64,000 bases of DNA from a virus (IMGVR_UViG_2721755712_000001); one strand, 5' to 3'; shown: positions 3,397 to 60,752, numbered from the stretch's first letter. Notes: generated from the letters alone by a model not told the origin. Numbers and translations are program-made.

Positions 3397-3660
3397 GTGC
3401 TTTCCTTTGTTTTTTAAACAAATTGTTTTCTAGTATTAGTTAATTAGATAGGGGATCAATAAACCGCCGTGCTTCTTCCAGTTCTTCTGGAAAGTGGGCG
3501 GAAATAAGGCGCTCTGGAACGATTTCCATTAGCCAGATAGCGGAGAAAATTGCGCGTATGCGCTTGCTGCGGGGGATGGTGCGTAAACGCTCCAGAATCC
3601 ACTCAAAATAGCTTTCCTGAATCGGGTTGAACTGCATGTCTCCCATATGCTTAAAGCTAA

Positions 3661-5728
<2,068 letters not shown>

Positions 5729-6255
5729 CCGTCGTGCAGCTGCGGAAAGAACGGTGGAGATAAAGTAGTCGTATGAGCAGCAATAGCGGTCAGCAAACTG
5801 GCGTGCTTTCCATAGAGACGTTTTATTGGCAGTCGACAACTCCTGATAAGGCAGGCGTTTTAACCCGGTGGTGAACGGAGCTGTTTCAAAGTGTTCGCGA
5901 CCGTGCGTCAGCATGATATTTGAGTACTGACGTTTGTATGCCTCCGTAAAAAGACAGGTGGCCATGAGAGGATGCATGTCGCGGTAATCAAACCACTTCG
6001 TCTCGAAGAGTTCAGCCTCATCTTTACAGCGCGACAAACCAATGTTTTCAGCAACCCACTTGTCCATAACAGCGGTATTCCACTCTGTCATGAAGTCGTA
6101 CTGGTTGTTGTCGATGGTATCGAAAAAGATTTGGCTCATGTGGCTCACCTGGTAGGTAGTTACTTACTTATCACGATGAGCGGATGATAGCGACTGGTGG
6201 CAGTTTTTGGAAGTGGAAACGGAAGGGAGTTGTTCTGGTGGTGTCTTTTAAAAGA

Positions 6256-7241: not shown

Positions 7242-7601
7242 TTAACCTTTCTTCATCAACTCTCGTTTGATTTCATCGGTACGCATCGTGACATCGGCAG
7301 CGGTGATCGCCTCATTCAATTTCACGATGTCCTCGATTTCCTGCGGTGACTTCTCTGCCAGATGGAAAATGGCTGCTCGAATCACGTCAGAACGAGTGAA
7401 CTTCTCGAAGCGAGGGATGAACTTCATCATCTCCAGCAGTTCGAAGTATTCGTCCTCCAGTGACATTGTGCGGCTTTTAATTTTCTCTTTGCCACGAGTC
7501 GGGCGTCCCTGTGGTCTGACTGGTTGGCGCAAAGGAGTTGTGTTCTTAGCCGGTGCATCAGGCTCTTTGCGCTTTGCTAGGTCACCCATTTTCATGGACA
7601 T
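7242..7601 (-). CDS. small partition-associated protein (ParG/ParB-like centromere-binding candidate)
   Basis: 119 aa, basic N-terminus; start ATG overlaps parA stop (ATGA coupling); GGAGG RBS. Confidence 0.45.
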   Translation of the reverse strand: MSMKMGDLAKRKEPDAPAKNTTPLRQPVRPQGRPTRGKEKIKSRTMSLEDEYFELLEMMKFIPRFEKFTRSDVIRAAIFHLAEKSPQEIEDIVKLNEAITAADVTMRTDEIKRELMKKG

Positions 7602-8269
7602 TATTCTTCTTCCTCCAGACTCAACAGATAATCTACAAATTCTTCAAACTCGGCTTCCGCCTTTTTGTCGCGCTCGCTACCGGTCATTTCAAAGATAGAA
7701 CGACCAGACTCTTCCGCATCATCATAGACGTTGCGGTTATATAGATTGACTGGCGCAGACTCGATTCCAAACGTCTCAACAATCTCTTTAGCCGCCAGAA
7801 TGCGAGACACTTGTGATGGCAAAGCCGGGCACTGGTTCATGACCGCGCGGACCTTCACTTTATCGTTTACATTGCGAACATTGTCGATAATAGGATCGAT
7901 GTCACGTAAAGATTTCAAATCACGACGCTTAGGACGCAGCGGGATAATGATAACGTCAGCCATCAGCATCGCTTGTCGCTGAATTTCGGAGTCGAAGCCA
8001 CCAGCATCTACCACTACAAACTCAGCTCTACCCTGAAGCGATTTTAGGTGCTTAATGATGTCATCCTGAACGTATGCAAAAGGAATCAGCTCAAGGTCTT
8101 CGTTCTGTCGACGGTCTTCACACCAGCTCGTTGTCGTGCGCTGAATATCTATATCGGTAATATAAACCTTCTTCTTCTTTTTGACTTTCAGGCAAACGGC
8201 AATTTGCTGGGCAACGGTGGATTTGCCAGGCCCGCCCTTTGTGCCGCCAACCACAAAGATCTTGGTCAT
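7601..8269 (-). CDS. parA: ParA/ParF-type partition ATPase
   Basis: Deviant Walker A GGTKGGPGKST near N-terminus; 222 aa, size of type Ib ParA. Confidence 0.85.
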   Translation of the reverse strand: MTKIFVVGGTKGGPGKSTVAQQIAVCLKVKKKKKVYITDIDIQRTTTSWCEDRRQNEDLELIPFAYVQDDIIKHLKSLQGRAEFVVVDAGGFDSEIQRQAMLMADVIIIPLRPKRRDLKSLRDIDPIIDNVRNVNDKVKVRAVMNQCPALPSQVSRILAAKEIVETFGIESAPVNLYNRNVYDDAEESGRSIFEMTGSERDKKAEAEFEEFVDYLLSLEEEE

Positions 8270-37480: not shown

Positions 37481-37535
37481 TCTAAAACAACTTGTTTACT
37501 GAATCTGCTAACCAACTTGTTTTCTGGGGTGTTTA
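37481..37535 (-). promoter_or_regulatory. two adjacent class I operator-like palindromes upstream of terS
   Basis: AAAACAACTTGTTTAC and AACCAACTTGTTTTCTGG, followed by GGGGTGTTTAATTAG (minus strand CTAATTAAACACCCC), matching the class I leader consensus. Confidence 0.45.
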
Positions 37536-37640: not shown

Positions 37641-37907
37641 TTACATCACCAGTAACTTCGCTTTGGCTCGACCTAAAGTGGTTAACCCAAGAGTTCGGCG
37701 GTGATAGCGATTGTCACTGCGTTGGCGCGTATGCCCTTTCTCCACCAGCCCCTTTTTTATCAGAGCGCGAATTGAGAACTGGATACTTTGCTTGGTTGTC
37801 TTGTACGGCAAAACTTCAAGCAATTCGTCCAGATCAAGTAAATGACCTCGCTCATAACCGAGATTGAGCGTTTTGATGATGTCCTTTTGTTTATCGGTTA
37901 ACGTCAT
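37641..37907 (-). CDS. small winged-helix-like DNA-binding protein (putative regulator), last gene of the ParB/ATPase cassette
   Basis: 88 aa, basic C-terminus; AAGGA RBS 9 nt after the stop of the upstream gene. Confidence 0.4.
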   Translation of the reverse strand: MTLTDKQKDIIKTLNLGYERGHLLDLDELLEVLPYKTTKQSIQFSIRALIKKGLVEKGHTRQRSDNRYHRRTLGLTTLGRAKAKLLVM

Positions 37908-37916
37908 GGCAAATCC

Positions 37917-38807
37917 TTATGCCGGTAAAGCAATTTCTAACGGTTTATCCAAAGGTTGTTTGTCGAATGCCAGCAGTGGCAGCGTGTCAGGCAGCCGACG
38001 ACCAAAGTCAGGGTTTCGGTACACACCATACAACGGAGACGTAAAGCTCAGGTTGTGAATGTCCTTGAGCAGCTTCACAATGCTGGCCTCGTCCACCAGA
38101 CTGTCGGCAATGTCCTGAATCGTCGTGCCACGATTCCGCCCAGCTTTTGCCAGGGAACTGTTCTTGTGGTAGTCCGCTACCAGATCACGCAGTGCACGGC
38201 GACGACGAGACTCGCTCATTGCGAACAACTCTTTGACGATCGCCTCGTTATCACCCGGGTCGGAACGGAAATGGCGCTGGAATACACGCAGTGCACTTTC
38301 ATAGCTCTTCGGTCGCTCAGGGCGGATGAACTTAAACCCTGCTTTCATGGCGAAGGGATTGTATTTGCTCATCGAGGACTGGATCTCAATGATTGGCCGG
38401 TCATGCATCCTGCTAACCAGGTTAATCATTCGATAAGAGACGCCTACGCCACGATACTGAGTATCCACAACTGAGCGACTGATCACCGCAAAGTTGTTAT
38501 TCACGTACCGACCCCAGTACTGGTTAGCCACGGTGGTATTAGTGGTTGGTTTCAACTTAGGAAACATGCGGTGGCGAGGTGCCAACAGTAGTTTCGGGTA
38601 AGCCATAACCACGACGCCCACCAGACGGTCATCAAGTTCGCAGCGATAGTAAGTTGGCGCGAAAGGTTTGCCGTCTGTTTTGTAGTGAAGCGACTTAAGA
38701 GCGTGCCAGTCCTCTACAGTTCCCTTTGTGACAGTCATTCGCTCCAGAAAGTCCAGATGACGCGGAAACTCTTCAGGGCGGTAGCGTTTAATGATGATGT
38801 CCGTCAT
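37917..38807 (-). CDS. GNAT-fold acetyltransferase-like protein
   Basis: 296 aa; motif VVDTQYRGVGVSYRMINLV resembles GNAT motif A; start overlaps the ATPase stop (ATGA). Confidence 0.45.
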   Translation of the reverse strand: MTDIIIKRYRPEEFPRHLDFLERMTVTKGTVEDWHALKSLHYKTDGKPFAPTYYRCELDDRLVGVVVMAYPKLLLAPRHRMFPKLKPTTNTTVANQYWGRYVNNNFAVISRSVVDTQYRGVGVSYRMINLVSRMHDRPIIEIQSSMSKYNPFAMKAGFKFIRPERPKSYESALRVFQRHFRSDPGDNEAIVKELFAMSESRRRRALRDLVADYHKNSSLAKAGRNRGTTIQDIADSLVDEASIVKLLKDIHNLSFTSPLYGVYRNPDFGRRLPDTLPLLAFDKQPLDKPLEIALPA

Positions 38808-39469
38808 AAATGAACCTCATCATGACTACCATTGTGATATTCCACCTTCACGCGTTCTTTGTAGTGCTTGGTGATCTGCATATCCGGGCGCAGCGCGTTC
38901 TTCAGGTCTTCGTGAGTCGTCGCCACCATTACCGTCGCACCAACCTTTCGAGCGGCACGCTGGAGGTTAGATGCCACAACCTGAGCGGTTACACGGTCTA
39001 GAACAGCCCCGAACTCGTCAGCAGCCCACACTTTAGCGCCTGACTCAATCAGTTTGGCAATCTTGAGACGATATTTCTGGCCGTCTGACATTTCAGAAGG
39101 CTTGCGAACAAACAGATATGCATCGTTCAGACCAGCCATAGATAACAACCCAAGCGCATCACTGGTCGTTTTGCCCAACTGATCGATGACGTTAACCTCA
39201 TTATCGAAGGTAAAATCATCGATGGAGGCTACAGACAGCCCTTCATCCTTCATCTGTCGTTGCAACTCGCGCAGCACAACGGATTTGCCGGATCCGGATT
39301 GGCCGGTGATGTACACCACATCGCCCTGCTTCACTTCCAGCTCCAGATTGTCGTAAAGCGTCCACTCTTTTTCGTCCAGGCCAAGCCCGAACGACTCAGC
39401 GATTTCCAACGTGCGCGTGGTTTTATTTACGCGTGTCTGAAACGATACGTTGATGATGTATTTGCTCAT
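38804..39469 (-). CDS. ABC-type ATPase (soluble, no membrane domain)
   Basis: Walker A GQSGSGKS, signature-like MSDGQKYRL, Walker B VWAADEF, H-loop-like ATTHE; 221 aa; start overlaps upstream stop. Confidence 0.65.
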   Translation of the reverse strand: MSKYIINVSFQTRVNKTTRTLEIAESFGLGLDEKEWTLYDNLELEVKQGDVVYITGQSGSGKSVVLRELQRQMKDEGLSVASIDDFTFDNEVNVIDQLGKTTSDALGLLSMAGLNDAYLFVRKPSEMSDGQKYRLKIAKLIESGAKVWAADEFGAVLDRVTAQVVASNLQRAARKVGATVMVATTHEDLKNALRPDMQITKHYKERVKVEYHNGSHDEVHL

Positions 39470-40134
39470 GCAGCCATCTCCCCGGAAGAGATCTTCTCCG
39501 CATATGCCACAAATGCGTCTACCCCGCTTTCTCCTGTCATTTCTTCCATGTGGGCAAGCAAATCACCAACAACAATGGCAGAGCCAGCAGGGAGCGTTTT
39601 AAAGCCCAATACGTCGACAACACGTACTTCTTCCGCTGCAACTTCACGACTGATCTCGGTGTGTTCATCCTTCTGTCGTTTAGTTTCTTCGCCAAGATCG
39701 ATAACTAGCGAGTCGGTGTCCATTTCTTCTGTCATACTGCCAACGAGAACATTCAACTCACGCTCTTCAAAGCCGAAAACCTCGATATCGTCCAGAACAA
39801 GCGACTCAAGCTCTTTCTGTAGCTTAATTGCATCGTAATCAATGCTGGCTAGTCGGTTATCTTCAAGGCGCTTCGCACGAACCTCGTCATCACTGAGATC
39901 ATCGCGAACAATAACCGGTACGCGCTCAAGTCCAGCAAAAATTGCAGCCTCACGGCGGCCGTGGCCAGTAATAATTACGTCGTTCTTATCGACCGTAATT
40001 GGCTGGTCAAATCCGCGCTTTTTAATGGCTGCGGCCAGATCTCGGATCTGCTGTTCATCATGCTTTTTGGCATTCATCTCATAGGGAATAAGATCTGCCG
40101 GGTCGCGATATACGATTTCAAACTTTTTGGTCAT
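39466..40134 (-). CDS. ParB-like nuclease domain protein (paralogue 2)
   Basis: ParB/Srx-type motif IITGHGRREAA; acidic C-terminal half; TAATG overlap with upstream gene. Confidence 0.6.
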   Translation of the reverse strand: MTKKFEIVYRDPADLIPYEMNAKKHDEQQIRDLAAAIKKRGFDQPITVDKNDVIITGHGRREAAIFAGLERVPVIVRDDLSDDEVRAKRLEDNRLASIDYDAIKLQKELESLVLDDIEVFGFEERELNVLVGSMTEEMDTDSLVIDLGEETKRQKDEHTEISREVAAEEVRVVDVLGFKTLPAGSAIVVGDLLAHMEEMTGESGVDAFVAYAEKISSGEMAA

Positions 40135-40814
40135 TACATACGCTCCTTGTAGTAGTCGACCAGCCACACCAGAGCCTCACCAGCGTTCTCCATTTCATTA
40201 CCGGTGTTAATAGCCTGCTCTTTGATGATGTTTTTTATGGTTTCTGCAACGCGATCTGACGCATCGAAGGTTACTTTGAAGCGCATGGTCTGATGTTCCG
40301 CACCGACACGTTCGGTTTTCTCTCGTTTGTCGGTATCGACAGGCTCGTCACCGCCACGAGACAACGCCTCCAGTGCTTCAAGGTCGATTGCAGCCTCTTT
40401 TGCTAAAACCATCGAGATTTCGTCGTCATACGGGGCGATTTCAGACAGTTGATAGTCAAGTTCTGACTGAATTTCTTCAATGAAGCGTTGCAATGCGATT
40501 TGGTCGTCTTCACCGTATCGCTCGTTGTCCACCAGTGACATCTGTTTAGCTACGACATCGCTAATTTTGCCCACAGAAAGCACCGGAACCGTTGAAATTC
40601 CTTGCTCAATAGCAGCACGCCAGCGATGTTCGCCGCCGAGGATTTCAAAAAATCCATCTTCAAGTTCACGAGCCAAAATTGGCTTAAAAAAGCCCAATTT
40701 TTCGATAGAACCTTTCAGTTTTTCAAAATTCTGCGCACCAACCGAATTGGTGTTCCAGGTATTCGGGCGAAGGTTGGCAACATCAACCTGCAAAATCGTG
40801 ATTTTTACATCCAT
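40134..40814 (-). CDS. ParB-like nuclease domain protein (paralogue 1)
   Basis: ParB-box-like ILGGEHRWRAA; first gene of a five-gene coupled cassette; ATG at 40812-40814 preferred over the GTG at 40832. Confidence 0.6.
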   Translation of the reverse strand: MDVKITILQVDVANLRPNTWNTNSVGAQNFEKLKGSIEKLGFFKPILARELEDGFFEILGGEHRWRAAIEQGISTVPVLSVGKISDVVAKQMSLVDNERYGEDDQIALQRFIEEIQSELDYQLSEIAPYDDEISMVLAKEAAIDLEALEALSRGGDEPVDTDKREKTERVGAEHQTMRFKVTFDASDRVAETIKNIIKEQAINTGNEMENAGEALVWLVDYYKERM

Positions 40815-40833
40815 TTTATTGCTACAATCCACT

Positions 40834-44656: not shown

Positions 44657-45178
44657 ATGGTTAAAGACATCACCTACGGCATACCGGCTGAAGTCTGGCC
44701 GCGAGACTACGAACATGCTGAAAACATACTTATGTTCTGGCGGAAGAACAACATTCCTGTAAGAGTCACGCTTGAAGACGGTCAGGTGTTTTGCATGTAC
44801 GTTCAGGGGACAATGCCTTCCCGCAATAAGCTAGATTTATGCCCGCTTCCATATGATAAAGAAAATCGTATAAGACTCCCACTTGAGCGCATTAGCACAA
44901 TTGAATCAGGTGTAATCGATGGCATTGCTCGCGAGTTCAAAGGTAGGCTAACAATACATCCAGACTATGTTGACAATCAGCCATCACGCCGTGACTTTTT
45001 TGCGATATGTCGCAAGGCTTATCAAAACGACCAATCTATAAGGGTCTACATGACAGACGGTCGTGAAATAGAAGGGGTGTCAAGAGGCGTTGATGCTTGC
45101 CAGGTCACTCTTAAGTTAGAAGACGGCAGAAAAATACTTGTTTTCTTCGATTGGGTTGAACGAATCCTTCCATTTTAA
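44657..45178 (+). CDS. hypothetical protein (internal duplication of a ~45-aa segment)
   Basis: 173 aa; two related segments (VRVTLEDGQVFCMYVQG / VTLKLEDGRKILVFFDW). Confidence 0.4.
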   Translation: MVKDITYGIPAEVWPRDYEHAENILMFWRKNNIPVRVTLEDGQVFCMYVQGTMPSRNKLDLCPLPYDKENRIRLPLERISTIESGVIDGIAREFKGRLTIHPDYVDNQPSRRDFFAICRKAYQNDQSIRVYMTDGREIEGVSRGVDACQVTLKLEDGRKILVFFDWVERILPF

Positions 45179-45473
45179 ATCTATAAGGGTAATAACCGGC
45201 TAAGCCCGGTTATTATTTTACATGCCATTCGTTTAAAACTCTTTCAATGTCACTCTGTATAAATATATAAGGTTAAAAGCCCGAATTGATTATTTATTTA
45301 GGGAACACCTTCGACGATCTCGCTTTTATTTCTAGGACTTTCATCCCTGCAGAAAATTTAAAAAAAATACTTGCAATCTTTTTTCACGTATCGATAATTG
45401 AACTCGTCGAAAGCGAGCTAGCTAACGACAGTAAAAAATAAATTCATTTTAATTTTTCGTAAGGATGTCCATC

Positions 45474-46124
45474 ATGACTAACATTATCATTTCTAAAAAG
45501 TCCATCATTGAAGCTGCTGCCATTGTATCCGACGAGCTGCGCGAAAAAGCAGATCTGGCAACTCAAACATATAACGAACATTATAAAAATGGTACGCACA
45601 CAAAAGCAGACAAAGCAAATATGCAAGCTGCAACCACTAAACTTGCTTACTTCATCAACAACGTTGTAAACGCTGTAGAAGACGAAAAATTGTGCTCTGT
45701 TTTCTACTATGCGATCAAAGCAAGCAAACAAGCGCCAGAAGTATTTTTCCGTGATGCAATGACTAATAGTTATTCTCTGGAAAAACTGGTTTATCTGGTT
45801 AAATCCATTAAAGCTGGAAAGTGTGTTTATTCCGTCGCTGATATGTCCGGATCTCGTGTATTCGCATTAATCGATATGATTAACGACGAGATCGACACGT
45901 TCACCAATGGCGCTGTTTTCGATTTAATGAATGAAGCGAAAAAAGCGTGCGAAATTAAATTGGACGCTGGCTATACTCAAGCCAACCAGTTGATCAATCT
46001 TTGCGAACGTCTTGGACTTGTTGAAAAAGTCAAAGGAGCTGGGAGCGCGAAAGCTGGTACTCAGCAATATCGCTTCATTAAAAATGATTTCTATAACTAT
46101 CTGGCTGATGCTTTCAAAGCGTAA
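45474..46124 (+). CDS. hypothetical protein
   Basis: ATG 45474 with AAGGA RBS; sigma70-like promoter upstream (TTGCAA ... CGATAAT near 45370-45395); AT-rich codon usage. Confidence 0.4.
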   Translation: MTNIIISKKSIIEAAAIVSDELREKADLATQTYNEHYKNGTHTKADKANMQAATTKLAYFINNVVNAVEDEKLCSVFYYAIKASKQAPEVFFRDAMTNSYSLEKLVYLVKSIKAGKCVYSVADMSGSRVFALIDMINDEIDTFTNGAVFDLMNEAKKACEIKLDAGYTQANQLINLCERLGLVEKVKGAGSAKAGTQQYRFIKNDFYNYLADAFKA

Positions 46125-46402: not shown

Positions 46403-46408
46403 AATCGA

Positions 46409-46431
46409 GCGCCCACTATGGGCGCTTTTTT
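46409..46431 (+). terminator. hairpin terminator GCGCCCA-CTA-TGGGCGC + T6 (copy 2)
   Basis: Identical to the 46138-46158 hairpin; further terminator-like hairpins follow at ~46447-46480 and ~46511-46545. Confidence 0.55.
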
Positions 46432-46893
46432 CGTTTCCAATACTTCCACCATAACGCGCCAATGATGGCGCTTTTTTTATTGTCTTTGACTCAAGCCAAC
46501 AACATAAAAATAAGCGCCAAAATAACGCCATAGACGCGCTTTTATATCCTTACCAGTACATACCCATTACTTAGCGCATTAACGCGCTTAAATCGCGTTA
46601 TATTGCGTTATGGTGTATGGTTAATCATTGGCTTTTATTCTTGCTATGTGATCCGCGTTTAATTGTCGGCTCGGATCGGCATTTTGTTTTGTTCCGTATC
46701 CGCTCGCGTATTATGTGCGCGTGATTTTTCACATAATCACACCACTTAATCACATATGTGATTACGCTACGAAAGAAATCTGGATGTCTCAGGCGACGAA
46801 AGTCATCATAATTTTCCCCGCTCACCTGTCCGACAACCGCTGGTTGGATTCCACCAGCTTCCCGATGTTTTTTCTATATAAAGGCGAATGCAG

Positions 46894-47009
46894 CCGTTTC
46901 CCGAAAAAATCCTGGCCGTTTCCCGTCGGCTCATGAATACGTTCCTCGCCGTTTCTGAAAATTTCCCTGCGGCAGCTGGTTGCTATATAGAAAGGGCCGT
47001 TTCTGGCCC
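46894..47009. repeat. iteron-like direct repeat cluster A (CCGTTTCCCGAAAA-type units, ~4 copies)
   Basis: CCGTTTCCCGAAAAAATCC, CCGTTTCCCGTCGG, CCGTTTCTGAAAATTTCCC, CCGTTTCTGGCCC; same unit family as cluster B at 50311-50640. Confidence 0.6.
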
Positions 47010-47018
47010 TCTTCTCAG

Positions 47019-47501
47019 TTACACGCCATCAAGGATGTGGATGCGGTTGCTGGCGTATACATTCAGCATAAAGTTAGCGCAAAACAGTTTCCATGTATCA
47101 ACGCCAGCGGTATACGTAATGTTTTTGCATTTAATCGCATTGTTGGCGATCCGCATCCCCTGCGATACTGCTTCATCGTCGGAAAATTTGAACGACGATT
47201 GAGTTTTAATCCAGACAGAAATCTGCGTAGCGAACTCAATCAGCTTGGACTGGCAGAATCGCCCGGAGCGCACCGGAAAGACGAACGTTCCGAATCCAGA
47301 ATTTACCACATACGCTTTCTCAAATACCCGCGAGTAACGACGATTGCCAATGATGTCGCGTGCAATAATGCATTTTTCTTGTGCTGACAGTTCTACCGTC
47401 TCATTGTCGCGCCATGCACCAAGTACTCGTTTTTCAATGTCAGAGAACGTTACAGCGATATTGCCATGTGCGGGTGCGTTTACAGTAGCGATAAAATTCA
47501 T
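47019..47501 (-). CDS. hypothetical early protein
   Basis: 160 aa; class I promoter/operator upstream; iteron cluster A just downstream. Confidence 0.45.
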   Translation of the reverse strand: MNFIATVNAPAHGNIAVTFSDIEKRVLGAWRDNETVELSAQEKCIIARDIIGNRRYSRVFEKAYVVNSGFGTFVFPVRSGRFCQSKLIEFATQISVWIKTQSSFKFSDDEAVSQGMRIANNAIKCKNITYTAGVDTWKLFCANFMLNVYASNRIHILDGV

Positions 47502-47520
47502 GATTATTTCCTTATCGTAA

Positions 47521-47555
47521 ATAACAAATTGTTTTCTTGTTGGTGTTAATTATCG
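47521..47555 (-). promoter_or_regulatory. class I promoter/operator (minus strand CGATAAT-TAACACCAACAAGAAAACAATTTGTT)
   Basis: -10-like GATAAT with TTGACG 15 nt upstream, then a conserved leader ending in the AACAA-A-TTGTT palindrome. Confidence 0.5.
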
Positions 47556-47705
47556 TTGTACGAATAAGGCGTCAAAGTGGAAAGTTGCGGTAGCCGGACG
47601 AGAACAGGTGGGTTTGTCGGTTGCCTGGAGGTAAGAGGTTGGTGTTTTTAGCCTGCGGGAAACAGGATGGTCATTTAAGGCCACCAGCATTGGTGGCCTT
47701 AGTCT

Positions 47706-47993
47706 TTAGTGGAGCAGACCGATGTCGATGGTATCCCCTGAATCATCCACACGGATCATCAGCATGGCGAAGGCGTTTAGTGGATAGCTTGCGTGCCATT
47801 CAGGGAAGCGGTCATCTCGCATGAAGTCGGCAATGTCGTAAACGCAGCCCTCAAAGTGGAAGAATCGCGTGCTTACCTGCTCGTCATATTCCACATGATC
47901 CATTTCTTGCTGTTCTGTTTCCGGCAAGTCCAGCCATGATTCAAGGAATACATTTTGTGCTTTAGGGGTAATGGTGAAATCAGTCATGAGCAT
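47706..47993 (-). CDS. small acidic early protein (hypothetical; anti-defence/DNA-mimic candidate)
   Basis: ATG 47991-47993 with GAGGA RBS; 95 aa, strongly acidic; class I promoter upstream. Function is speculative. Confidence 0.45.
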   Translation of the reverse strand: MLMTDFTITPKAQNVFLESWLDLPETEQQEMDHVEYDEQVSTRFFHFEGCVYDIADFMRDDRFPEWHASYPLNAFAMLMIRVDDSGDTIDIGLLH

Positions 47994-48006
47994 ATCCTCA
48001 CTGCGT

Positions 48007-48040
48007 AAACATATTGTTTTCTTGTTGGTGTAATTATCGC
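48007..48040 (-). promoter_or_regulatory. class I promoter/operator (CGATAAT-TACACCAACAAGAAAACAATATGTTT)
   Basis: Same architecture as the 47521-47555 site. Confidence 0.5.
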
Positions 48041-48322
48041 AGTGTAGATAAGGCATAAAAGAAGTTAATACAGGCTGAATACACAAGAAAGGTTCTGGAA
48101 GTTGATAGCCAGGTTTCAAACTAACCTTCGGTTATTAAAAGTCATTTAAGACCACCAATGCTGGTGGCCTTAATAATTATCGCCCGATTACGCTAAGGAT
48201 CTTTTCCTCAACTGATTTGTTGTTGCGACTAAACTGCCTTGCGTATCTGATGACAGAAGAGGCGTTTTGCTTTCTGACCATCTCGGCTCTTTCCTTCAGG
48301 CGTTTCTTGAAATCGCCCATAT

Positions 48323-48697
48323 TTACCACCAGGCGCAGAAGGTCAGTCTGTTATTGTGAAAGTCGTGGTTCTTAATCAGATCTTCCACAAGCTCTTTCAA
48401 CTCCCCCACATCATGCCAGTAACCTTCATCGTACTCCTGACTGCCGAAGAAAAAACCTTCCCGGGTAGGCAAGTACTCTTCGCAATTACTTTCGTTTATG
48501 TGCATCAAATGAGCCTTCAGAAAACAAATGTCATTCATCGTTAATTCTAAAAGCTCACAATTTTCGACTTCACCTACGTTGCGCTCCATCCACCCAACGA
48601 GCGCATTGAACTTACGGAAGTAAGCAACCTGCTTTCTGGATGCCTCGTTATTCAGATCGTTTTTAGGCTGTGTCTCGATATAGATATCAAGTCCCAT
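48323..48697 (-). CDS. hypothetical early protein
   Basis: ATG 48695-48697 with AAGGAAA RBS; 124 aa; class I-like palindrome upstream at 48757-48773. Confidence 0.45.
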   Translation of the reverse strand: MGLDIYIETQPKNDLNNEASRKQVAYFRKFNALVGWMERNVGEVENCELLELTMNDICFLKAHLMHINESNCEEYLPTREGFFFGSQEYDEGYWHDVGELKELVEDLIKNHDFHNNRLTFCAWW

Positions 48698-48814
48698 GAT
48701 GGTTTCCTTATTAAGTTGCTTCAGTGAAATCATTTTCACAAATCAGATAAGGCAGAAAACAAATTGTTATCGGGTATAAGAAAATGGCGCGGTTTACGCG
48801 CCATTTAAAGAGGA

Positions 48815-49210
48815 TTAAGCGAATACGCTTTCAGGGATTAAGGTGTCGGCAGGAATGCCAGAGGTAATGCGCAGACCGTACTGGCCAATCCAGGTGGTGC
48901 TGGTGTTCAGGCTGGAGGCGAATACGGTGTTAACCATATTCATCATGGTTTCAAACACCTCTTCATCAACCTGGCGGAAGTAGTTCTCGATTTTCAGCAG
49001 CAGAGGGTCAGTTGCATCGAGAATGGACTGGTATTGAGTCGCGTACTCGCCGCCGGAGGCATCACCTTTACGCACGATCGTACTGGCCTGGACTTCGGCA
49101 CCAGTTTCGGTGTTGTACGTAACAACGGTGATTTTTGCCACATTCTTACCTTCGGCGGTTTCAGAGGCATAGTAAACATCAACTGTCAGTTTTTCGCGTT
49201 TAACGGTCAT
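48815..49210 (-). CDS. hypothetical protein
   Basis: ATG 49208-49210 with GGAGAG RBS; 131 aa; class II motif upstream at 49253-49269. Confidence 0.45.
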   Translation of the reverse strand: MTVKREKLTVDVYYASETAEGKNVAKITVVTYNTETGAEVQASTIVRKGDASGGEYATQYQSILDATDPLLLKIENYFRQVDEEVFETMMNMVNTVFASSLNTSTTWIGQYGLRITSGIPADTLIPESVFA

Positions 49211-49336
49211 TTCACTCTCCGTAGTGTATTGGTTATTTTTATATTCTATGATCGTAAGTATGTACTTACAATACAAAAAAGCCCCGTAAGGATGGCGGGG
49301 CTGTCGTACTGTCGACTAATTACCACTTGCACATTA

Positions 49337-49648
49337 TCAGGCTATTGCCATCACTGATGCTCTCTGAATTTCTTGCTGGGCCACGCGGTTAACTTCCATC
49401 AAGGCCAGTTCGAGCTGATGTTCCGGCCACATTCTTTGAAATGCCACCCATCCTTTTCCACGCTGGCGACGAACATTCATTACATAACGAGTAAAGGTGT
49501 TTTTATCGAAAGACACCGCTGTTTCACGGAACAGACGAATAGAAGTTCCATTGGCAACGATGTCTAGCAAAGTTAATTGAGCAACCAGTGCAGGCTTCTC
49601 TTTTCTCTTCTGGTCTTTGTCCAGACCAAGAACCAATGATTTTTTCAT
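49337..49648 (-). CDS. hypothetical early protein
   Basis: ATG 49646-49648 with GGAG RBS; 103 aa; class I palindrome AACAACTTGTTTTC at 49661-49674. Confidence 0.4.
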   Translation of the reverse strand: MKKSLVLGLDKDQKRKEKPALVAQLTLLDIVANGTSIRLFRETAVSFDKNTFTRYVMNVRRQRGKGWVAFQRMWPEHQLELALMEVNRVAQQEIQRASVMAIA

Positions 49649-49801
49649 CACAACTCCGTAAACAACTTGTTTTCTCAATGGCGTAAATAATACCAGTAAG
49701 AAAACGGCTACAAAGCATAATGATCAGGTGCATGATCGATATGCAGGTTCCTCCCAGCGGCTATAGAGAAATTAAGCCAGCAATGCTGGCTTTGGTTGGG
49801 A

Positions 49802-50131
49802 TTACGCGAATACCTCAAGAAACTCCTGAACGTCCCAATGCTGGACGAGGTGAAGATAGACCTTAGAAATCACGTCATTTTCGCTATCGCATGTGAAGTA
49901 GTACTTCTGGCTGCGGTTGTATGTGTCCACACAAAATTCGCTCATATCCATAAAGTCAGCATCTTCACCCATGTCGCAAATCATCAAAGCAGGTGCGTCA
50001 TCACGAGTCATCAGCTCAAGCACCCACCGCGAATTGATCAGAGTGGAAGACCAACCTTCTAACTCATAAAACTGATCAAACTCTTTTTGAGTTAATTTCT
50101 TGATTTGGTTGATGTCGATATTTGCAAACAT
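49802..50131 (-). CDS. small acidic early protein (hypothetical; anti-defence candidate)
   Basis: ATG 50129-50131 with AAGGA RBS; 109 aa acidic; class I promoter/operator at 50144-50177 (the track's upstream ATG lies inside the operator). Confidence 0.45.
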   Translation of the reverse strand: MFANIDINQIKKLTQKEFDQFYELEGWSSTLINSRWVLELMTRDDAPALMICDMGEDADFMDMSEFCVDTYNRSQKYYFTCDSENDVISKVYLHLVQHWDVQEFLEVFA

Positions 50132-50310
50132 AAAGCAATCCTTAAACAACATGTTTTCTTGATGGTGTTATTATCGCAATAACGCACAGGCGAAAAAGGA
50201 TTTTATTCCGGTGAATGTGGTTTTGGCAGTGAGTTTTCAGGTTCAGTACCGAGTACACTTTTTACATTATTCTGATTTAGTGGCCGAAAGTGGCTGGTGG
50301 GCAGAATAAT

Positions 50311-50640
50311 CCTCTCCCCGAAAACCTACTGAAATCGATTGTGACCCGTTGGCTGTCTGGCACAATTACGCTGTAGCTGGGCATTCAGAGGGAATCCAGC
50401 GGTAAGCAAGTCCGCCTACGTGAGCGCCTCTCTTCTTCCCGCACATTACAGGTGGGTAGCCGCAACTCTCCCTCTCGCTATACCGGTACGCCACCGTTCC
50501 TGAACCGGCATCGAGCCTTCTCCCGAAATCCACACAGGCAACTCGACCGTTTCCCTGAAAACCTCCAGCCGTTCCCCGAAGGCAACCCAGCCGTTTCTGT
50601 AGCGGGATGCAGCCTTTTCCCTGTATGGACCGAAGGCTGA
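50311..50640. repeat. iteron-like direct repeat cluster B (~7 degenerate 22-bp units, consensus CCGTTTCCC-GAAAA...CAGC)
   Basis: e.g. CGTTTCCCTGAAAACCTCCAGC / CGTTCCCCGAAGGCAACCCAGC / CGTTTCTGTAGCGGGATGCAGC in register at 22-bp spacing; non-coding (track ORFs here are low-complexity artefacts). Confidence 0.6.
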
Positions 50641-50779
50641 CCGTAGGGGTGTTACGGGGGATAAAATCAGGAGTTGAATAAATACGAAAAAGGAGGCGAC
50701 ACCCCTCCTTCCCTCTCCACTTATACATACCTGGCTTCTTCGCTATACATGTTGTGTTTTCTTCGTGTTTTATCTGTCT

Positions 50780-51570
50780 CAACCTCTCTATAGGCGTTAA
50801 TGCTCACTCCTTCCAGAACGTTCTATACGGCGACTATTTCTGTTGGTGAATTGGGTGTGTTGTTTTCTCTGTCGGTGTATGTGGTTTCGTTAGTTTTGCG
50901 GTGATTCTTCTATGGGGTGTTCTCGTCGTTTTGGTGATTGTTCTTCTCCGTGTATGGAGTAATGGCAGGTGGGCGATTGCTTTCGTTATTGTGTTTGAGT
51001 TGTTTGTCTGGAGTGTGTGAAAGGCTTTTGTAGTTATTCGTGTATTGGGTAATGGCGTTTCCCGTGATTGTTACGCTTCGTGTCTTTTGGGATTGAGAGA
51101 AACCTTGCGGTTACAGGCTTCGTTGGGGTTTCAGCGGTTCAGGTGTTTCTTCGCTGTTTGGGTAATGGCGTGTCGTGGGTATCGCGCGTATGAATGTTTT
51201 CGGATTGCCTGTGAAAGTTAGGTTGGTTGTCCGGTAGCCTGAGAAGAAGAGGTGGGTCTTTTCGGTAGCCTGCCATAAAGAGGTTGGTTGTTATGGGGAA
51301 TGGCATATGTGTTATTTAGTTGTTTTGTTATAGCTGAAAATAAGTTGTTTATATAGTTATGTAACGCAATGGGAGTGATTTTGAGCGTGTGTTTTTGTTG
51401 GTAGTGTGTTGGGTCGTCTGTGGTGAAAATTGGACGCTGTGGCGCTGTCTGCTGCGTAGAATTACGGGTATAAGAAGTGATGTGTGAATACGTCAATTTT
51501 TTAGACCAAATCGGGTGAAAGCGTTGACGTTTCGTTGATCTGTTATTTAGTTGTTTTCTTATTGGTATAA
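50780..51570. repeat. GT-skewed non-coding tract (~800 bp) with several degenerate direct-repeat families
   Basis: Plus strand almost only G/T; repeated GGGTAATGGCG-type units (50951, 51041, 51150, 51290), CGGTAGCCTG x2 (51230-51275), TGTTATTTAGTTGTTTT x2 (51311, 51541); no credible ORF. Confidence 0.6.
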
Positions 51571-51703
51571 ACAACGTTAACCTATTGATATTTAAAGGTG
51601 TGATTGCAGGTATGGAAGAAGAGTAGTGGCGATCAACGGATTCTTATAGAAAAGAATCAAATTGTGACCGCCATTATCAACTGATTGATTAAGCTAATTA
51701 CAC

Positions 51704-52894
51704 TCAAACATCCCCGTTCTTAATCCACTGCCTGACTTGCTCGTCTTGTGCGACTTCTTTCTCATGTTTGGCAATATACAAGTCTGGCAATAGGGGTGGA
51801 GCGAATTCAGGCTCTGTCGCACGCCACTTTTCATATGCGTCACGCATGGATTTCTCAACATTCCAATGCTCCAACTCTTGGTATTCAATCGGCCAGTTAT
51901 CCTGCAATCTCTTCACTGCATTAGCCAGGTCGTATCGGAAGTAAGGATTAAGACCAATGAAATTACCAGCCAGCATGTCATCAACCTCCTTCACTCTGGC
52001 AATCTTAGAAAACTTACCAATAGCAATGTTGAGGTCCCAATCTGACACGAACAACAAAAGTGCTGCAAATGCCAGAAACTTAGCTTCCCCGTATGCTCTG
52101 TCGCTAACCGTTTTTGTCTGAAACTCAATGTAATTGCCCATCACAAAACTAGTAAGCTTACAGGTCTTACTTATCTCGTCCTCCAAATGCGATGGATCGA
52201 GAATTGTGCGGTCACGATTATTGTTTATGTGTTCTAAGATTACAGCAATGTCTCTATGTGAGACTGAAATTTCACGCAATTGCTGGAGAGTCTTGATGTG
52301 AACTCTTAGCACCTCTTTGTCAATCGCACGCTTCCAAGAAAAACCAGGCACAGTAACCTGAATGGGCGCGAAAGGTAGAATATCAGGAGTTGTCCATGCT
52401 AGATATGCATCACGTAACCCACTAATATAATAAAGCCAGTCTAAATGCTCGCTTTCTAACCATATTTCAAATGTGGAATCCTTTCGCTTATTGAAGAACC
52501 ATTCCCTCATCTGCCACATTTTTTCTTGAGTAAATATCCCTTCCTGTATGCCGGCACAGACCAGCTTTCGTATTACCTGCGAATACTTTGTTCGATCTTT
52601 TGTGAATGAGACAAGGTGCTGCTTCACCTCAGATGTTAGTCTATCTCCATAGAAATCACATGATGGATGATGGCCTTGACCATCTTCACCGGTAAATCTG
52701 AAATGCGCCTTCTTGTGATAGCCACCATTCCTAGTGGCTCTAACGAACGAACCACCTCCAACTTTGCAAATGGGGCAGATGATATCGTCACGGGCAATAG
52801 CATGAACCGAGCTGTCATCTAAATTCTTTAGCGCCAAGTACTGCTCAGGATCGACTTCTTTTTGTAACGATTTTGAAAAAGCGGTATCAGTCAT
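51704..52894 (-). CDS. hypothetical protein with N-terminal Cys/His zinc-ribbon-like motif (candidate replication initiator or DNA-binding protein)
   Basis: CPICK...HHPSC cluster near N-terminus; ~396 aa from ATG 52892-52894 (GGAG RBS); directly adjacent to the iteron/GT-rich region. Function inferred from context only. Confidence 0.45.
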   Translation of the reverse strand: MTDTAFSKSLQKEVDPEQYLALKNLDDSSVHAIARDDIICPICKVGGGSFVRATRNGGYHKKAHFRFTGEDGQGHHPSCDFYGDRLTSEVKQHLVSFTKDRTKYSQVIRKLVCAGIQEGIFTQEKMWQMREWFFNKRKDSTFEIWLESEHLDWLYYISGLRDAYLAWTTPDILPFAPIQVTVPGFSWKRAIDKEVLRVHIKTLQQLREISVSHRDIAVILEHINNNRDRTILDPSHLEDEISKTCKLTSFVMGNYIEFQTKTVSDRAYGEAKFLAFAALLLFVSDWDLNIAIGKFSKIARVKEVDDMLAGNFIGLNPYFRYDLANAVKRLQDNWPIEYQELEHWNVEKSMRDAYEKWRATEPEFAPPLLPDLYIAKHEKEVAQDEQVRQWIKNGDV

Positions 52895-53064
52895 TCCAAG
52901 CTCCGAGCAAGGGGTTATTTGTTCAATTATCATTCGGAATTATTTACTGTCTCGCCCAGTTTCACGTCATTTTATTCCCTAGTCTAGCTTTTCTAGGGTA
53001 TACAGCTTATTACAAGCTCCTCATTATTAACTGTTTCCGTAACTCATTGATCCGCTTATACACT

Positions 53065-53525: not shown

Positions 53526-55559
53526 TTACTTAACCTGGTGGCCAGGTTTAGCACCAGCATCCGGGCTTAACAGGAAGATATCTTTCCCGCCGGGGCCAGC
53601 AGCCATCACCATACCTTCGGAGATGCCGAAGCGCATCTTACGCGGAGCCAGGTTAGCCACCATAATGGTGTGACGACCAATCAGTGCCTGTGGGTCTGGA
53701 TAAGCAGAACGGATGCCTGAGAAGACATTGCGTTTTTCACCGCCGAGATCCAGCGTCAGGCGCAGCAGTTTGTCAGAACCTTCAACAAACTCTGCGTTTT
53801 CGATCAGTGCCACGCGCAGGTCAACTTTGGCAAAGTCGTCAAAGGTGATGGTTTCCTGAATCGGGTCGTCTGCCAGCGGGCCAGTAACTGGCGCGGCAGT
53901 AGCTTTCACTTCTTCTTTAGACGCTTCCACCAATGCTTCCACCTGTTTCATGTCGATACGGTTATACAGTGCTTTGAACGGATTCACTTTATGGCCCAGC
54001 AGCGGTTGCTGGATGCCATCCCAGGTCAGTTCCGTATTCAGGAATGCTTCCGCACGTTCTGTCAGTTTCGGCAGTACCGGTTTCAGGTAAGTCATCAGCA
54101 CGCGGAACAGGTTGATGCCCATTGAGCAAATCGCCTGCAGGTCAGCATCGCGACCTTCCTGTTTTGCGACTACCCAAGGAGCCTGCTCGTCGACATAGCG
54201 GTTAGCCAGGTCAGCCAGTGCCATGATTTCACGGATAGCTTTACCAAATTCGCGGCTTTCCCACGCTTCACCAATCACTTCAGCGGCATCAGTGAAGGTT
54301 TTGTACAACTGCGGGTCAGCCAGCTCGCTTGCCAGCACACCGTCAAAACGCTTATTGATAAAGCCAGCGTTACGGGACGCCAGGTTAACCACTTTGTTCA
54401 CGATATCGGCATTCACACGCTGAACGAAATCCTCCAGGTTGAGATCGATATCATCAATGCGCGAAGAGAGTTTCGCAGTGTAGTAGTAACGCAGGCTGTC
54501 AGCGTCAAAATGATTCAACCAGGTGCTGGCTTTAATAAAGGTGCCGCGAGACTTGGACATCTTCGCGCCGTTCACCGTCACATAGCCGTGAACAAACAGG
54601 TTGGTCGGCTTGCGGAAGTTGCTGCCTTCCAGCATGGCAGGCCAGAACAGGCTGTGGAAGTAAACGATATCTTTACCGATGAAGTGGTACAGCTCGGCGG
54701 TGGAGTCTTTCTTCCAGTATTCATCGAAGCTGGTAGTGTCGCCGCGCTTGTCGCACAGATTCTTGAAGGAACCCATGTAGCCAATCGGTGCGTCCAGCCA
54801 GACGTAGAAATATTTACCCGGCGCGTTCGGAATTTCAAAACCGAAGTAAGGTGCGTCGCGGGAGATATCCCACTGTTGCAGACCAGATTCAAACCACTCC
54901 TGCATTTTGTTTGCCACCTGCTCCTGCAACGCACCGCTGCGGGTCCATGCCTGCAACATTTCGCTGAAAGAGGGCAGATCAAAGAAGAAGTGTTCAGAAT
55001 CACGCATTACCGGGGTAGCACCAGAAACCACCGATTTCGGCTCGATCAGTTCAGTCGGGCTGTAGGTCGCGCCGCAAACTTCACAGTTATCGCCGTATTG
55101 ATCTGGCGCTTTACATTTCGGGCAGGTGCCTTTCACAAAACGATCCGGCAGGAACATGCCTTTTTCCGGGTCGTACAACTGAGAGATAGTGCGATTTTTA
55201 ATAAAACCGTTCTCTTTCAGGCGAGTATAGATAAGCTCAGACAACTGACGGTTCTCTTCGCTGTGCGTCGAGTGATAGTTGTCATAGCTGATGTTAAAGC
55301 CTGCGAAATCAGTCTGGTGTTCCTGACTCATTTCGCCAATCATCTGCTCCGGTGTGATACCAAGTTGCTGTGCTTTCAGCATGATCGGCGTACCGTGGGC
55401 ATCGTCGGCACAGATGAAATTAACCTCGTGGCCGCGCATTCGCTGGTAACGAACCCAGACATCAGCCTGGATGTGCTCCAGCATATGGCCGAGGTGGATT
55501 GAGCCGTTAGCGTACGGCAGCGCGCACGTCACCAGAATTTTCTTCGCGACTTGGGTCAT
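53526..55559 (-). CDS. metG: methionyl-tRNA synthetase
   Basis: 677 aa from ATG 55557-55559 ([29 protein letters not shown]...); HIGH-type and KMSKS motifs; matches Escherichia-type MetG as recalled. Confidence 0.97.
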
Positions 55560-55716
55560 AGTAGGCATTACTTCTTTGTAGTGAAAAGGGGCTTGATAGT
55601 AACAAAATGGCCTTATGTCTGCCATGTGATAACAGCATTTCTCATAAATGATTAAATGTCGCAGCTGGAGTACACTACAAGGCGACAATTGCGCAAATTA
55701 AAATAAAGGAGACGGG

Positions 55717-59508: not shown

Positions 59509-60752
59509 GCGAGCTGAGTTATCTGGAAAAACTGCTGGATGGGGCTGAGGTTGAGTGGGTAGCATTAAATAAATTAGCAACTTTTTTAAAAGGGAAGTCT
59601 TTACCTAAAGAAAAAATAACTCCAGATGGCAATAGATATTGTATTCATTACGGTGAGCTTTTCACTCATTATGGTCCCATAATTGACAAAGTATGCTCAA
59701 AAACAAACCAAGCAATCAATGAGTCAATTCTATCTGAAAAAAATGATGTTCTAATGCCAACGTCAGACGTTACACCAAGAGGTTTGGCTACAGCTAGTTG
59801 CATTCAAGAAAGTGGCGTTATTTTAGGCGGCGATATTTTGATTATTAGATGCTCTGGTGTTGATGGTAGATATCTAAGTAATTTCATAATAAATAACAAA
59901 AAAAAGATATTGCAAATGGTTAAAGGTTCTACTGTTTATCATTTGTATGCTAAAGATATAGGTAAATTACTTATCCCCATCCCTTGCCCCAACAACCCGG
60001 AAAAGTCGCTGGCTATCCAGTCTGAAATCGTCAGGATTCTGGATAAATTTACTGCGCTTACCGCTGAGCTTACCGCTGAGCTTAGCATGCGTAAAAAACA
60101 ATACAACTACTATCGCGACCAGTTGTTGAGTTTTAAAGAGGGTGAGGTTGAGTGGAAAGCTTTGGGGGAAATTGGTGAAGTTCGTATGTGTAAACGAATC
60201 CTAAAATCACAAACATCTTCTGAGGGAGAGATTCCATTTTATAAAATTGGGACATTTGGTAAGGAACCCGATTCCTATATATCTAGAAAACTATTTAATG
60301 AATTTAAAGAAAAATATAGTTATCCTAAAGTTGGCGAAGTATTGATTTCTGCCAGTGGGACCATCGGCAGGACTGTTATATTTGATGGTAGGGAATCATA
60401 TTTCCAGGATAGCAATATTGTCTGGATTGAAAATAATGAAAAAATAGTTTTAAATAAATATTTATTCTATTTCTATAAAATAGCAAAATGGGGAATATCT
60501 GAAGGTGGAACTATTAAAAGACTTTATAATGATAACTTAAGAAAACTTATGATACCAGTACCATTTCCTGATTCTCCTGAAAGATCGCTAGTTGAACAAC
60601 AAAAAATAGTGAAATTACTGGATAAATTTGATGCTTTGACCAATTCCATCACCGAAGGTCTTCCGCGTGAAATCGAGTTGCGCCAGAAACAATACGAGTA
60701 CTATCGTGATTTACTGTTCAGTTTTCCCAAACCTGAAACTATCAGTAACTAA
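59505..60752 (+). CDS. hsdS: type I R-M specificity subunit (type IC) with two TAEL repeats in the central spacer
   Basis: 415 aa; two target-recognition domains with AT-rich codon usage; central conserved region with LTAELTAEL (12-bp tandem repeat at 60056-60079); ATGA overlap with hsdM. Confidence 0.9.

Follow-up and report, generated by a model that had tools for sequence, protein, structure and literature searches.

Conserved, helically phased repeat arrays on either side of an early-gene block in SSU5/pHCM2-type phage-plasmids: predicted protein-binding sites and a possible lytic-cycle origin

Introduction

In phage P4, ori and crr are two clusters of octamer repeats that bind the alpha protein and lie ~4.5 kb apart. 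The T4 origins oriF and oriG and the ColE1-type origins, on the other hand, are R-loop origins and have no known iteron arrays. Here we analyse two arrays of short direct repeats, A and B, in a 64,000-nucleotide stretch of viral DNA (IMGVR_UViG_2721755712_000001; hereafter the window, with positions counted from its first nucleotide). The arrays border a block of small early-type genes in an element that we assign to the SSU5/pHCM2-type phage-plasmids. An earlier note, made from the sequence of the window, had read the repeats as the origin and copy-control iterons of a plasmid replicon.

The locus shares features with several described systems. Like P4 ori/crr, it has a short core repeated with variable spacers, in two non-coding clusters a few kilobases apart on a phage-plasmid-like element; it differs from P4 in that its motif is unrelated to TGTTCACC and that the element yielded no candidate for an alpha-like primase-helicase carrying a domain for DNA binding. 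Like P1 incC/incA and the RepFIB iterons, the arrays are direct repeats on a phage-plasmid, and the window's element does carry a replicon of this kind; however, that replicon, with repA and its ATCCACTATAGAGAG-type iterons, is unrelated in sequence and located elsewhere, whereas the CCGTTTCCC arrays are constant across replicon types. With T4 oriF/oriG and ColE1-type origins the locus shares promoter-like boxes that adjoin a long G-rich non-template stretch, and with T4 also a UvsW-like helicase, a gp32-like single-stranded DNA-binding protein (SSB), an RNase H and a weakly gp59-like protein; those origins have no known iterons, however, and in the window both transcription and R-loop formation are only presumed.

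Results

On comparative sequence grounds we are confident that the arrays are conserved, helically phased and part of the phage backbone, and that they are unrelated to the plasmid replicon. The window contains 11 matches to CCGTTYCY, eight of them in two clusters and all eight on the plus strand. The looser motif CC[GT]T[TC][TC]C[CT] reaches up to seven same-strand matches per 350 bp, whereas 300 simulated first-order Markov sequences averaged 1.9 and never exceeded 3; the two clusters described in the earlier note thus far exceed chance. In the 112-kb plasmid that served as reference for whole-element comparisons, the motif forms two clusters only, arrays A and B, in the same orientation.

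Each unit consists of a core of 9-10 nt, CC(G/T)TTTCCC(T)G, of the CCGTTTCCC type, followed by a variable spacer of ~13 nt. Tandem Repeats Finder reports neither array, because only this core is conserved. Unit starts are separated by 22 and 33 bp in array A and by 22, 31, 22, 22 and 22 bp in array B, so the three in-register units at 22 bp that had been noticed in the second cluster belong to a longer run. Over 55 distinct arrays of the family, spacings of 22 bp occur 105 times, of 31-34 bp 37 times and of 44-48 bp 13 times. Each spacing thus corresponds to a whole number of turns of the helix, as expected if duplex DNA, rather than RNA, is recognised, and from one face.

The unit counts of the earlier note need adjustment. 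It gave about four for the first cluster, where three are good; the supposed fourth, at 46997, would add a spacing of 48 bp and extend the array to 46894-47004, but it forms the loop of the hairpin that terminates gene 47019-47501. The most diverged relative, from K. ozaenae, has a different hairpin at that terminator and lacks the motif, and the 46997 copy is therefore probably not a true unit. Of the seven or so given for the second cluster, six stand, at 50494-50621, and the first, CCTCTCCCCGAAAACC at 50311, is degenerate and restricted to E. coli and Klebsiella lineages. The description of both clusters as non-coding holds, since the overlapping open reading frames (ORFs) are unconserved and the indels seen when relatives are aligned have lengths not divisible by three.

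Some 190 E. coli plasmids, 105-115 kb in size, match positions 46500-51800 from end to end at 97-98% identity; E. coli chromosomes give zero matches. Further plasmid matches come from Klebsiella, Enterobacter, Salmonella, Yersinia, Citrobacter and Cronobacter, almost all typed as non-mobilizable. Among phages, Cyrano and further SSU5-like phages are matched as well, and the window is 97-98% identical to Cyrano and to E. coli plasmid pM-199-4197. It is on the annotation of these two records that we identify the window as an SSU5/pHCM2-type phage-plasmid. Their gene content comprises tail, head and terminase genes, a RepFIB-type repA and a T4-like DNA-metabolism set, which Pfam confirms (DnaE, DnaB-like helicase, primase, ligase, NrdAB, RNase H, gp32-like SSB and UvsW-like helicase). 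The neighbour of the DnaB-like helicase weakly resembles gp59, and the UvsW-like helicase gene lies 4.4 kb from array A. The window's element further encodes a toxin-antitoxin module and a ParA-like ATPase (7601-8269) with a 119-amino-acid partner (7242-7601). The earlier proposal of an autonomously replicating element holds, the element being a phage-plasmid.

Both arrays keep their position and orientation in an E. coli lineage of 72% identity, E. fergusonii, Enterobacter and S. Typhi pHCM2, and likewise in Citrobacter, Klebsiella, Cronobacter, Buttiauxella, the diverged K. ozaenae element and phage SSU5. The cores are constant and the spacers variable in more than 10 diverged relatives, SSU5 included. 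Eleven diverged relatives are identical over unit 1 of array A and its flank (AGCCGTTTCCCGAAA), the architecture of array B is matched in SSU5, pHCM2 and Cronobacter, and Cronobacter has four perfect CCGTTTCCC units exactly 22 bp apart. Y. pestis pMT1 retains array A only; its DNA past gene 3 is replaced and adjoins IS1541. This pattern predicts that the arrays are binding sites for one sequence-specific DNA-binding protein, which would most likely be encoded by the conserved SSU5/pHCM2-type phage backbone. Coordinates of the arrays and of the surrounding features are collected in Table 1.

Table 1. The two repeat arrays and neighbouring features of the window
Feature	Position	Strand	Description
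Non-coding region left of array A	46403-46893		Conserved; two terminators, GCGC/ACGCG-containing repeats, GATC sites, dyad symmetries, box TTTTCTAYATAAAGGC
Array A	46894-46970	+	Units CCGTTTCCCGAAAA / CCGTTTCCCGTCGG / CCGTTTCTGAAAATTTCCCTGCGG, starting at 46894, 46916, 46949
Terminator hairpin of gene 47019-47501	46990-47015	-	GGGCC-GTTTCT-GGCCC on the plus strand; compensatory stem changes among relatives
Early-type block	47019-50152	-	Six main small genes (160, 93, 124, 131, 103, 109 amino acids) and a 50-amino-acid ORF
Chi and degenerate unit	50293-50329	+	Chi GCTGGTGG at 50293-50300, then CCTCTCCCCGAAAACC at 50311; both conserved in E. coli and Klebsiella lineages only
Array B	50494-50634	+	Six units CC(G/T)T(T/C)(T/C)CC(C), starting at 50494, 50516, 50547, 50569, 50591, 50613
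Junction	50635-50740		Conserved GGCTGACCGTAGGGGTGTTACGGGGGAT...CTTGAATAAATACG...CACTTATAC; minus-strand terminator-like hairpin 50713-50686
G+T-skewed segment	50750-51650	+	~0.9 kb, conserved, non-coding, extreme plus-strand G+T excess
Right end	51651-51703		Nearly invariant; consensus of relatives ...GGCGATCAACGGAYTCTTATAGAAA..CAAWTTGTGACCGCCAATGTCAAC, window ends GCCATTATCAAC; abuts variable accessory region
409-amino-acid gene	51704-52933	-	Taken for a Rep gene in the earlier note; accessory, outside the element; other genes in many relatives

The idea that the arrays are the origin and copy-control iterons of a plasmid was rejected. The RepFIB-type repA occupies positions 1-1056 of the reference plasmid, outside the window and ~30 kb from the arrays, and is flanked by its own two sets of ATCCACTATAGAGAG-type iterons and by DnaA-box-like sequences (reference plasmid 1-1540 and 111.8-112.4 kb), whose sequence is unrelated to that of the array motif. 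Iterons would be expected to co-vary with the Rep protein or replicon type; however, relatives of the types IncFIB, rep_cluster_763 and rep_cluster_2469 carry the arrays unaltered, with an identical core in all three. What survives of the original proposal is the iteron-like character: the repeats are direct and in helical phase, with 22 bp dominant, as in iterons of 17-22 bp, yet only 9-10 bp of each unit is conserved.

The candidate Rep gene, given earlier as 51704-52894, was rejected as well. The protein that it encodes has no Pfam domain and no Rep domain, and the gene is swapped for unrelated genes in relatives where the arrays persist; the right flank of the array region is on this ground a hotspot for accessory genes.

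Similar repeats do occur in other phages, at positions typical of origin iterons. In IMG/VR, at least 120 loci match CCGTTTCC-N14-CCGTTTCC; of the first 120 listed, about half are SSU5-like and half come from unrelated phages. In the unrelated phages examined, the 8-mer CCGTTTCC is found at 22-bp phasing where origin iterons usually sit. For example, one has ATTCGGC-N6-GCCGTTTCC units within the gene that takes the O position in a lambdoid replication module, where a GATC/AT-rich stretch adjoins them, and another has repeats directly upstream of a Rep_3 initiator gene. Searched by tblastn against the phage-plasmid, the O-like and Rep_3 initiators of these phages find no homologue. The likeness, which extends to direct repeats, 22-bp phasing and the 8-mer itself, is one of analogy rather than homology. 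Lambdoid and Rep_3 iterons are moreover conserved over nearly their full length and lie in or beside the initiator gene, whereas the window's arrays are conserved over 9-10 bp, are intergenic and belong to an element that encodes no O- or Rep_3-like protein.

At array B begins a non-coding region of 1.5 kb, which retains 66-72% identity across genera. Most of it is the G+T-skewed segment, where the GC skew in the window rises to +0.5 and the AT skew falls to -0.57. The skew is kept in every relative (GC skew +0.15 to +0.37, with 14-30 G3+ runs as against 1-9 C3+ runs), and no ORF in this segment is conserved among relatives. Neither strand folds better than shuffled sequence (z +1.39 and -0.09), and the minus-strand RNA would be nearly unstructured. 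The segment could serve as an R-loop zone or as a zone for Rho loading. It contains GTAATGGC repeats at 50959, 51049 and 51162 and two AT-rich promoter-like boxes (51307-51364 and 51538-51595), which, at 51305 and 51537, are the least stable duplex of the 1.5-kb region and fall in the top 0.1-0.3% of the window. In some large Klebsiella plasmids a fragment of the right-hand non-coding DNA lies within a mosaic flanked by insertion sequences and is uninformative.

A second repeat family, CGGTAGCCTG-N6-AGAGGTGGGT, occurs in the same segment as a pair at 51232 and 51263; the same pair is present at 47588 and 47618, where it precedes the gene 47019-47501 promoter. The members of each pair are ~30 bp apart, within zones 51220-51293 and 47588-47676. 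This arrangement suggests that the copy in the G+T segment is a promoter-associated site without a downstream ORF.

The small early-type genes lie between the arrays, as the earlier note had said. Their proteins are mostly acidic and gave no domain in a Pfam search, and the gene set differs among relatives; the genes probably have an anti-defence role. Every early gene has its own promoter-like box, and terminator-like hairpins follow most of them. The first early promoter lies 270-430 bp downstream of array B. Array A comes just after the last terminator, in conserved non-coding DNA of 0.6 kb that separates convergent genes. The 103-amino-acid protein is basic and conserved; in the most diverged relative it is the best-conserved protein of the block, at 52% identity.

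An operator-like box, AACAAnTTGTTTTCT, with the palindrome AACAA-N-TTGTT, is present at ~12 promoter regions (26 matches with <=2 mismatches as against 5.6 expected). Copies at 3417, 8306, 37486-37525, 42469, 47523, 48008, 48754, 49661, 50145, 53379 and 53426 include sites upstream of the helicase gene, parA, terS and every early gene. Probably it serves a global regulator as operator, or else is a promoter element of the phage.

A full-length FljA-like protein is encoded 1.7 kb left of array A (44657-45178, plus strand; Pfam Flag1_repress, E 1e-80, with a weakly Hfq-like C-terminus) by a gene kept in all relatives. The 5' leaders of the early genes (...GATAAGGAAAnnATCATG) presumably resemble the Salmonella fliC leader that FljA binds, and the FljA-like protein may control early-gene translation.

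Searches of Pfam, PHROGs and PDB found no DNA-binding domain in the block proteins and their neighbours, and among the candidate proteins examined none could be established as the binder of the arrays. Candidates include the 103-amino-acid protein of the block (49337-49648), an 88-amino-acid protein (37641-37907), the 119-amino-acid partner of the ParA-like ATPase, the two ParB_N proteins and a 219-amino-acid protein (45465-46124).

A conserved operon upstream of terS (37641-40832, minus strand) encodes two ParB_N proteins, a small ABC-type ATPase and a 296-amino-acid protein, whose gene is annotated in the Cyrano record as an ABC-ATPase/acetyltransferase fusion. It ends with an 88-amino-acid protein that has a winged-helix look by eye, and it is kept even in pMT1; the operon may function in packaging or in the modification of DNA.

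Chi sites (GCTGGTGG) are in eight-fold excess, with 13 in the window as against 1.6 expected and none of 100 shuffles reaching 13. Examples are those at 47681 (minus), 48160 (plus) and 50293 (plus), and several lie within early-gene terminator hairpins. Most relatives have one Chi site beside each array; the one that follows array A in most of them is mutated to GCTGGTTG in the window.

The window's copy of the element also carries an IS21-family insertion at 3861-5662 (plus strand; IstA-like protein of 340 and IstB of 260 amino acids). It splits the 246-amino-acid gene beside the DnaB-like helicase gene into pieces at 3440-3808 and 5672-6148 (minus strand), while the gene is uninterrupted in pM-199-4197. 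With this gene interrupted, the window's phage-plasmid may be defective in lytic replication. Elsewhere, by homology to pM-199-4197 and Cyrano, the element has copies of the host genes metG, for methionyl-tRNA synthetase, and apbC/mrp (53526-55688, minus, and ~55.8-56.9 kb, plus). In a nearest-neighbour profile, the lowest duplex stability of the whole window, in its most AT-rich part, is at 59865-60560.

Discussion

We tentatively favour the reading that the arrays, as binding sites of a phage-encoded protein, mark a lytic-cycle origin or cis-acting replication region, and we put its probability at roughly 0.35. The reading is favoured on account of the iteron-like phasing, the parallel with phage origins, the large conserved non-coding region and the T4-like replication genes; the independence of the arrays from replicon type and from the flanking accessory gene also speaks for it. 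In the proposed scheme, an early protein would oligomerise on the 22-bp-phased sites of arrays B and A, and the adjacent non-coding DNA, with its two AT-rich boxes and its 0.9-kb G-rich unstructured segment, would supply strand opening or transcript priming. The replisome would be the element's own T4-like set, namely the DnaB-like helicase, its weakly gp59-like neighbour, the primase, the gp32-like SSB, RNase H and the UvsW-like helicase. The overall layout would then be like that of P4 ori/crr or SPP1 oriL/oriR.

Several observations weigh against an origin. No initiator was identified in the element, and we know of no T4-type origin that has iterons, which in other systems are typically conserved over 17-22 bp as against the 9-10 bp of the arrays. 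Neither array has a strongly unstable segment of the DNA-unwinding-element type beside it, the least stable boxes being 0.7-0.9 kb from array B, and the cumulative GC skew of the whole plasmid is monotonic, with no feature at the array locus. The repeats are unmentioned in the literature searched. Finally, arrays that flank a block of early genes could just as well be regulatory or architectural in role.

A more specific version of the origin reading, which we regard as rather unlikely, is that the arrays and the 1.5-kb non-coding region form an undescribed composite lytic origin, in which an iteron-like array is coupled to a 0.9-kb R-loop zone. The R-loop zone would be served by the element's RNase H, its UvsW-like helicase and possibly a gp59-like loader, and the second array, at a distance of 3.6 kb, would serve as an enhancer in cis or as a partner in handcuffing. 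An implication of such an arrangement, if true, is that the element has a second replicon beside its RepFIB origin, and the same would apply to S. Typhi pHCM2, Y. pestis pMT1 and many resistance-gene plasmids.

Among regulatory or architectural roles, it is possible, though doubtful, that an early or lysogeny protein bridges the two arrays and thereby loops or insulates the 3.6-kb early block, shutting it off or blocking read-through. The lambda CI OL-OR loop and KorB-type long-range silencing operate in a comparable manner. The arrays sit exactly at both borders of the block, they have the same orientation and a two-unit module in common, and the conserved basic 103-amino-acid protein is encoded within the block. 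For insulation in particular, the 0.9-kb minus-strand transcript, C-rich, G-poor and unstructured, would be ideal for Rho loading, and a zone of this kind would shield the early block from upstream transcription. However, the AACAA-N-TTGTT box, common to ~12 other promoter regions, is also present at the promoter of each early gene, so that flanking arrays would not be needed for repression. Direct, non-palindromic repeats are moreover atypical of repressors, and pMT1 retains array A without either array B or the 103-amino-acid protein.

Centromeres had been named in the earlier note as another setting of paired iteron arrays. On this alternative the arrays would be a dispersed parS-like centromere for the ParA-like ATPase and its 119-amino-acid partner. 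The phage-plasmid N15 sets a precedent, with centromere sites scattered far from sopAB, and a repeat array beside the par operon itself is absent from the element. Most family members have the 119-amino-acid protein at 90-100% conservation, in keeping with the invariant motif; the K. ozaenae version, however, is only 48% identical although the motif there is unchanged, and pMT1 lacks the par pair and still has array A. The arrays thus fail to co-vary with the protein that would bind them, and the alternative is weakened accordingly. Sites of type Ib partition systems are, furthermore, normally located at the par promoter, where a candidate pair, ATGTGATATAGCCT / ATGGGCTATAGCCT, is found.

The sequence of the core does recall sites of the ParB family. 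ParB recognises parS, TGTTTCAC-GTGAAACA, and Noc the NBS, TATTTCCC-GGGAAATA (PMC7383237). The core GTTTCCC is one base off both the parS half-site GTTTCAC and the NBS half-site ATTTCCC, as a hybrid of the two, and the element encodes two ParB_N-domain proteins. The array units, in contrast, are direct and half-site-like rather than palindromic, and the ParB_N proteins (39466-40832), when aligned to Spo0J, have no recognisable ParB-type helix-turn-helix and no GKxR motif. For want of this helix-turn-helix, the parS-like look of the core is not attributable to them. On balance we consider a centromere quite unlikely.

It is very unlikely that the arrays are TerS-binding sites, or the boundaries of direct terminal repeats around early genes that would be injected first. 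In T7, the SRL and SRR repeat arrays adjoin the terminal repeat, and in T5 and SPO1 the terminal repeats carry pre-early or host-takeover genes; the window is reminiscent of this in having an array in direct orientation at both borders of a set of strongly promoted small early genes, and sites phased on one helix face would suit wrapping on an oligomeric TerS. However, terS and terL lie 9.5-13 kb from the arrays, and TerL is nearest to the T4 gp17 and P74-26 types, not to those of T7 or T5. Rather than at the arrays, the SSU5 and Cyrano records are opened between the 88-amino-acid gene and terS, and none of the deposited SSU5-like phage records has its first base there; from IMG/VR locus lengths no contig ends could be inferred.

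Least probable of all is that the units act in a transcript, as a sponge or leader with binding sites for the FljA-like or another RNA-binding protein: the units of both arrays are on one strand, the FljA-like gene is close by, the strand asymmetry of the adjacent 0.9-kb region points to a function at the single-strand level and pHCM2- and SSU5-type relatives carry a plus-strand gene reading toward array B, but the unit spacing tracks the DNA helical repeat, RNAalifold finds no conserved structure or covariation on either strand of array A except the gene terminator, Rfam is negative both at the gathering score and at E<1, neither array is framed by a clear promoter and terminator, and in one relative the FljA-like protein is only 34% identical with the motif unchanged.

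Whichever function applies, the repeats should not be annotated as a plasmid oriV or as an incompatibility determinant. SSU5/pHCM2-type phage-plasmids are common in clinical Enterobacteriaceae, and ~770-840 PLSDB records match the array regions, some of them with CTX-M genes. As a conserved and unannotated cis element, the arrays provide a handle on the switch from low-copy plasmid maintenance to lytic replication. We suggest that their study could locate the lytic origin of this family or reveal how its early genes, likely anti-defence in function, are controlled.

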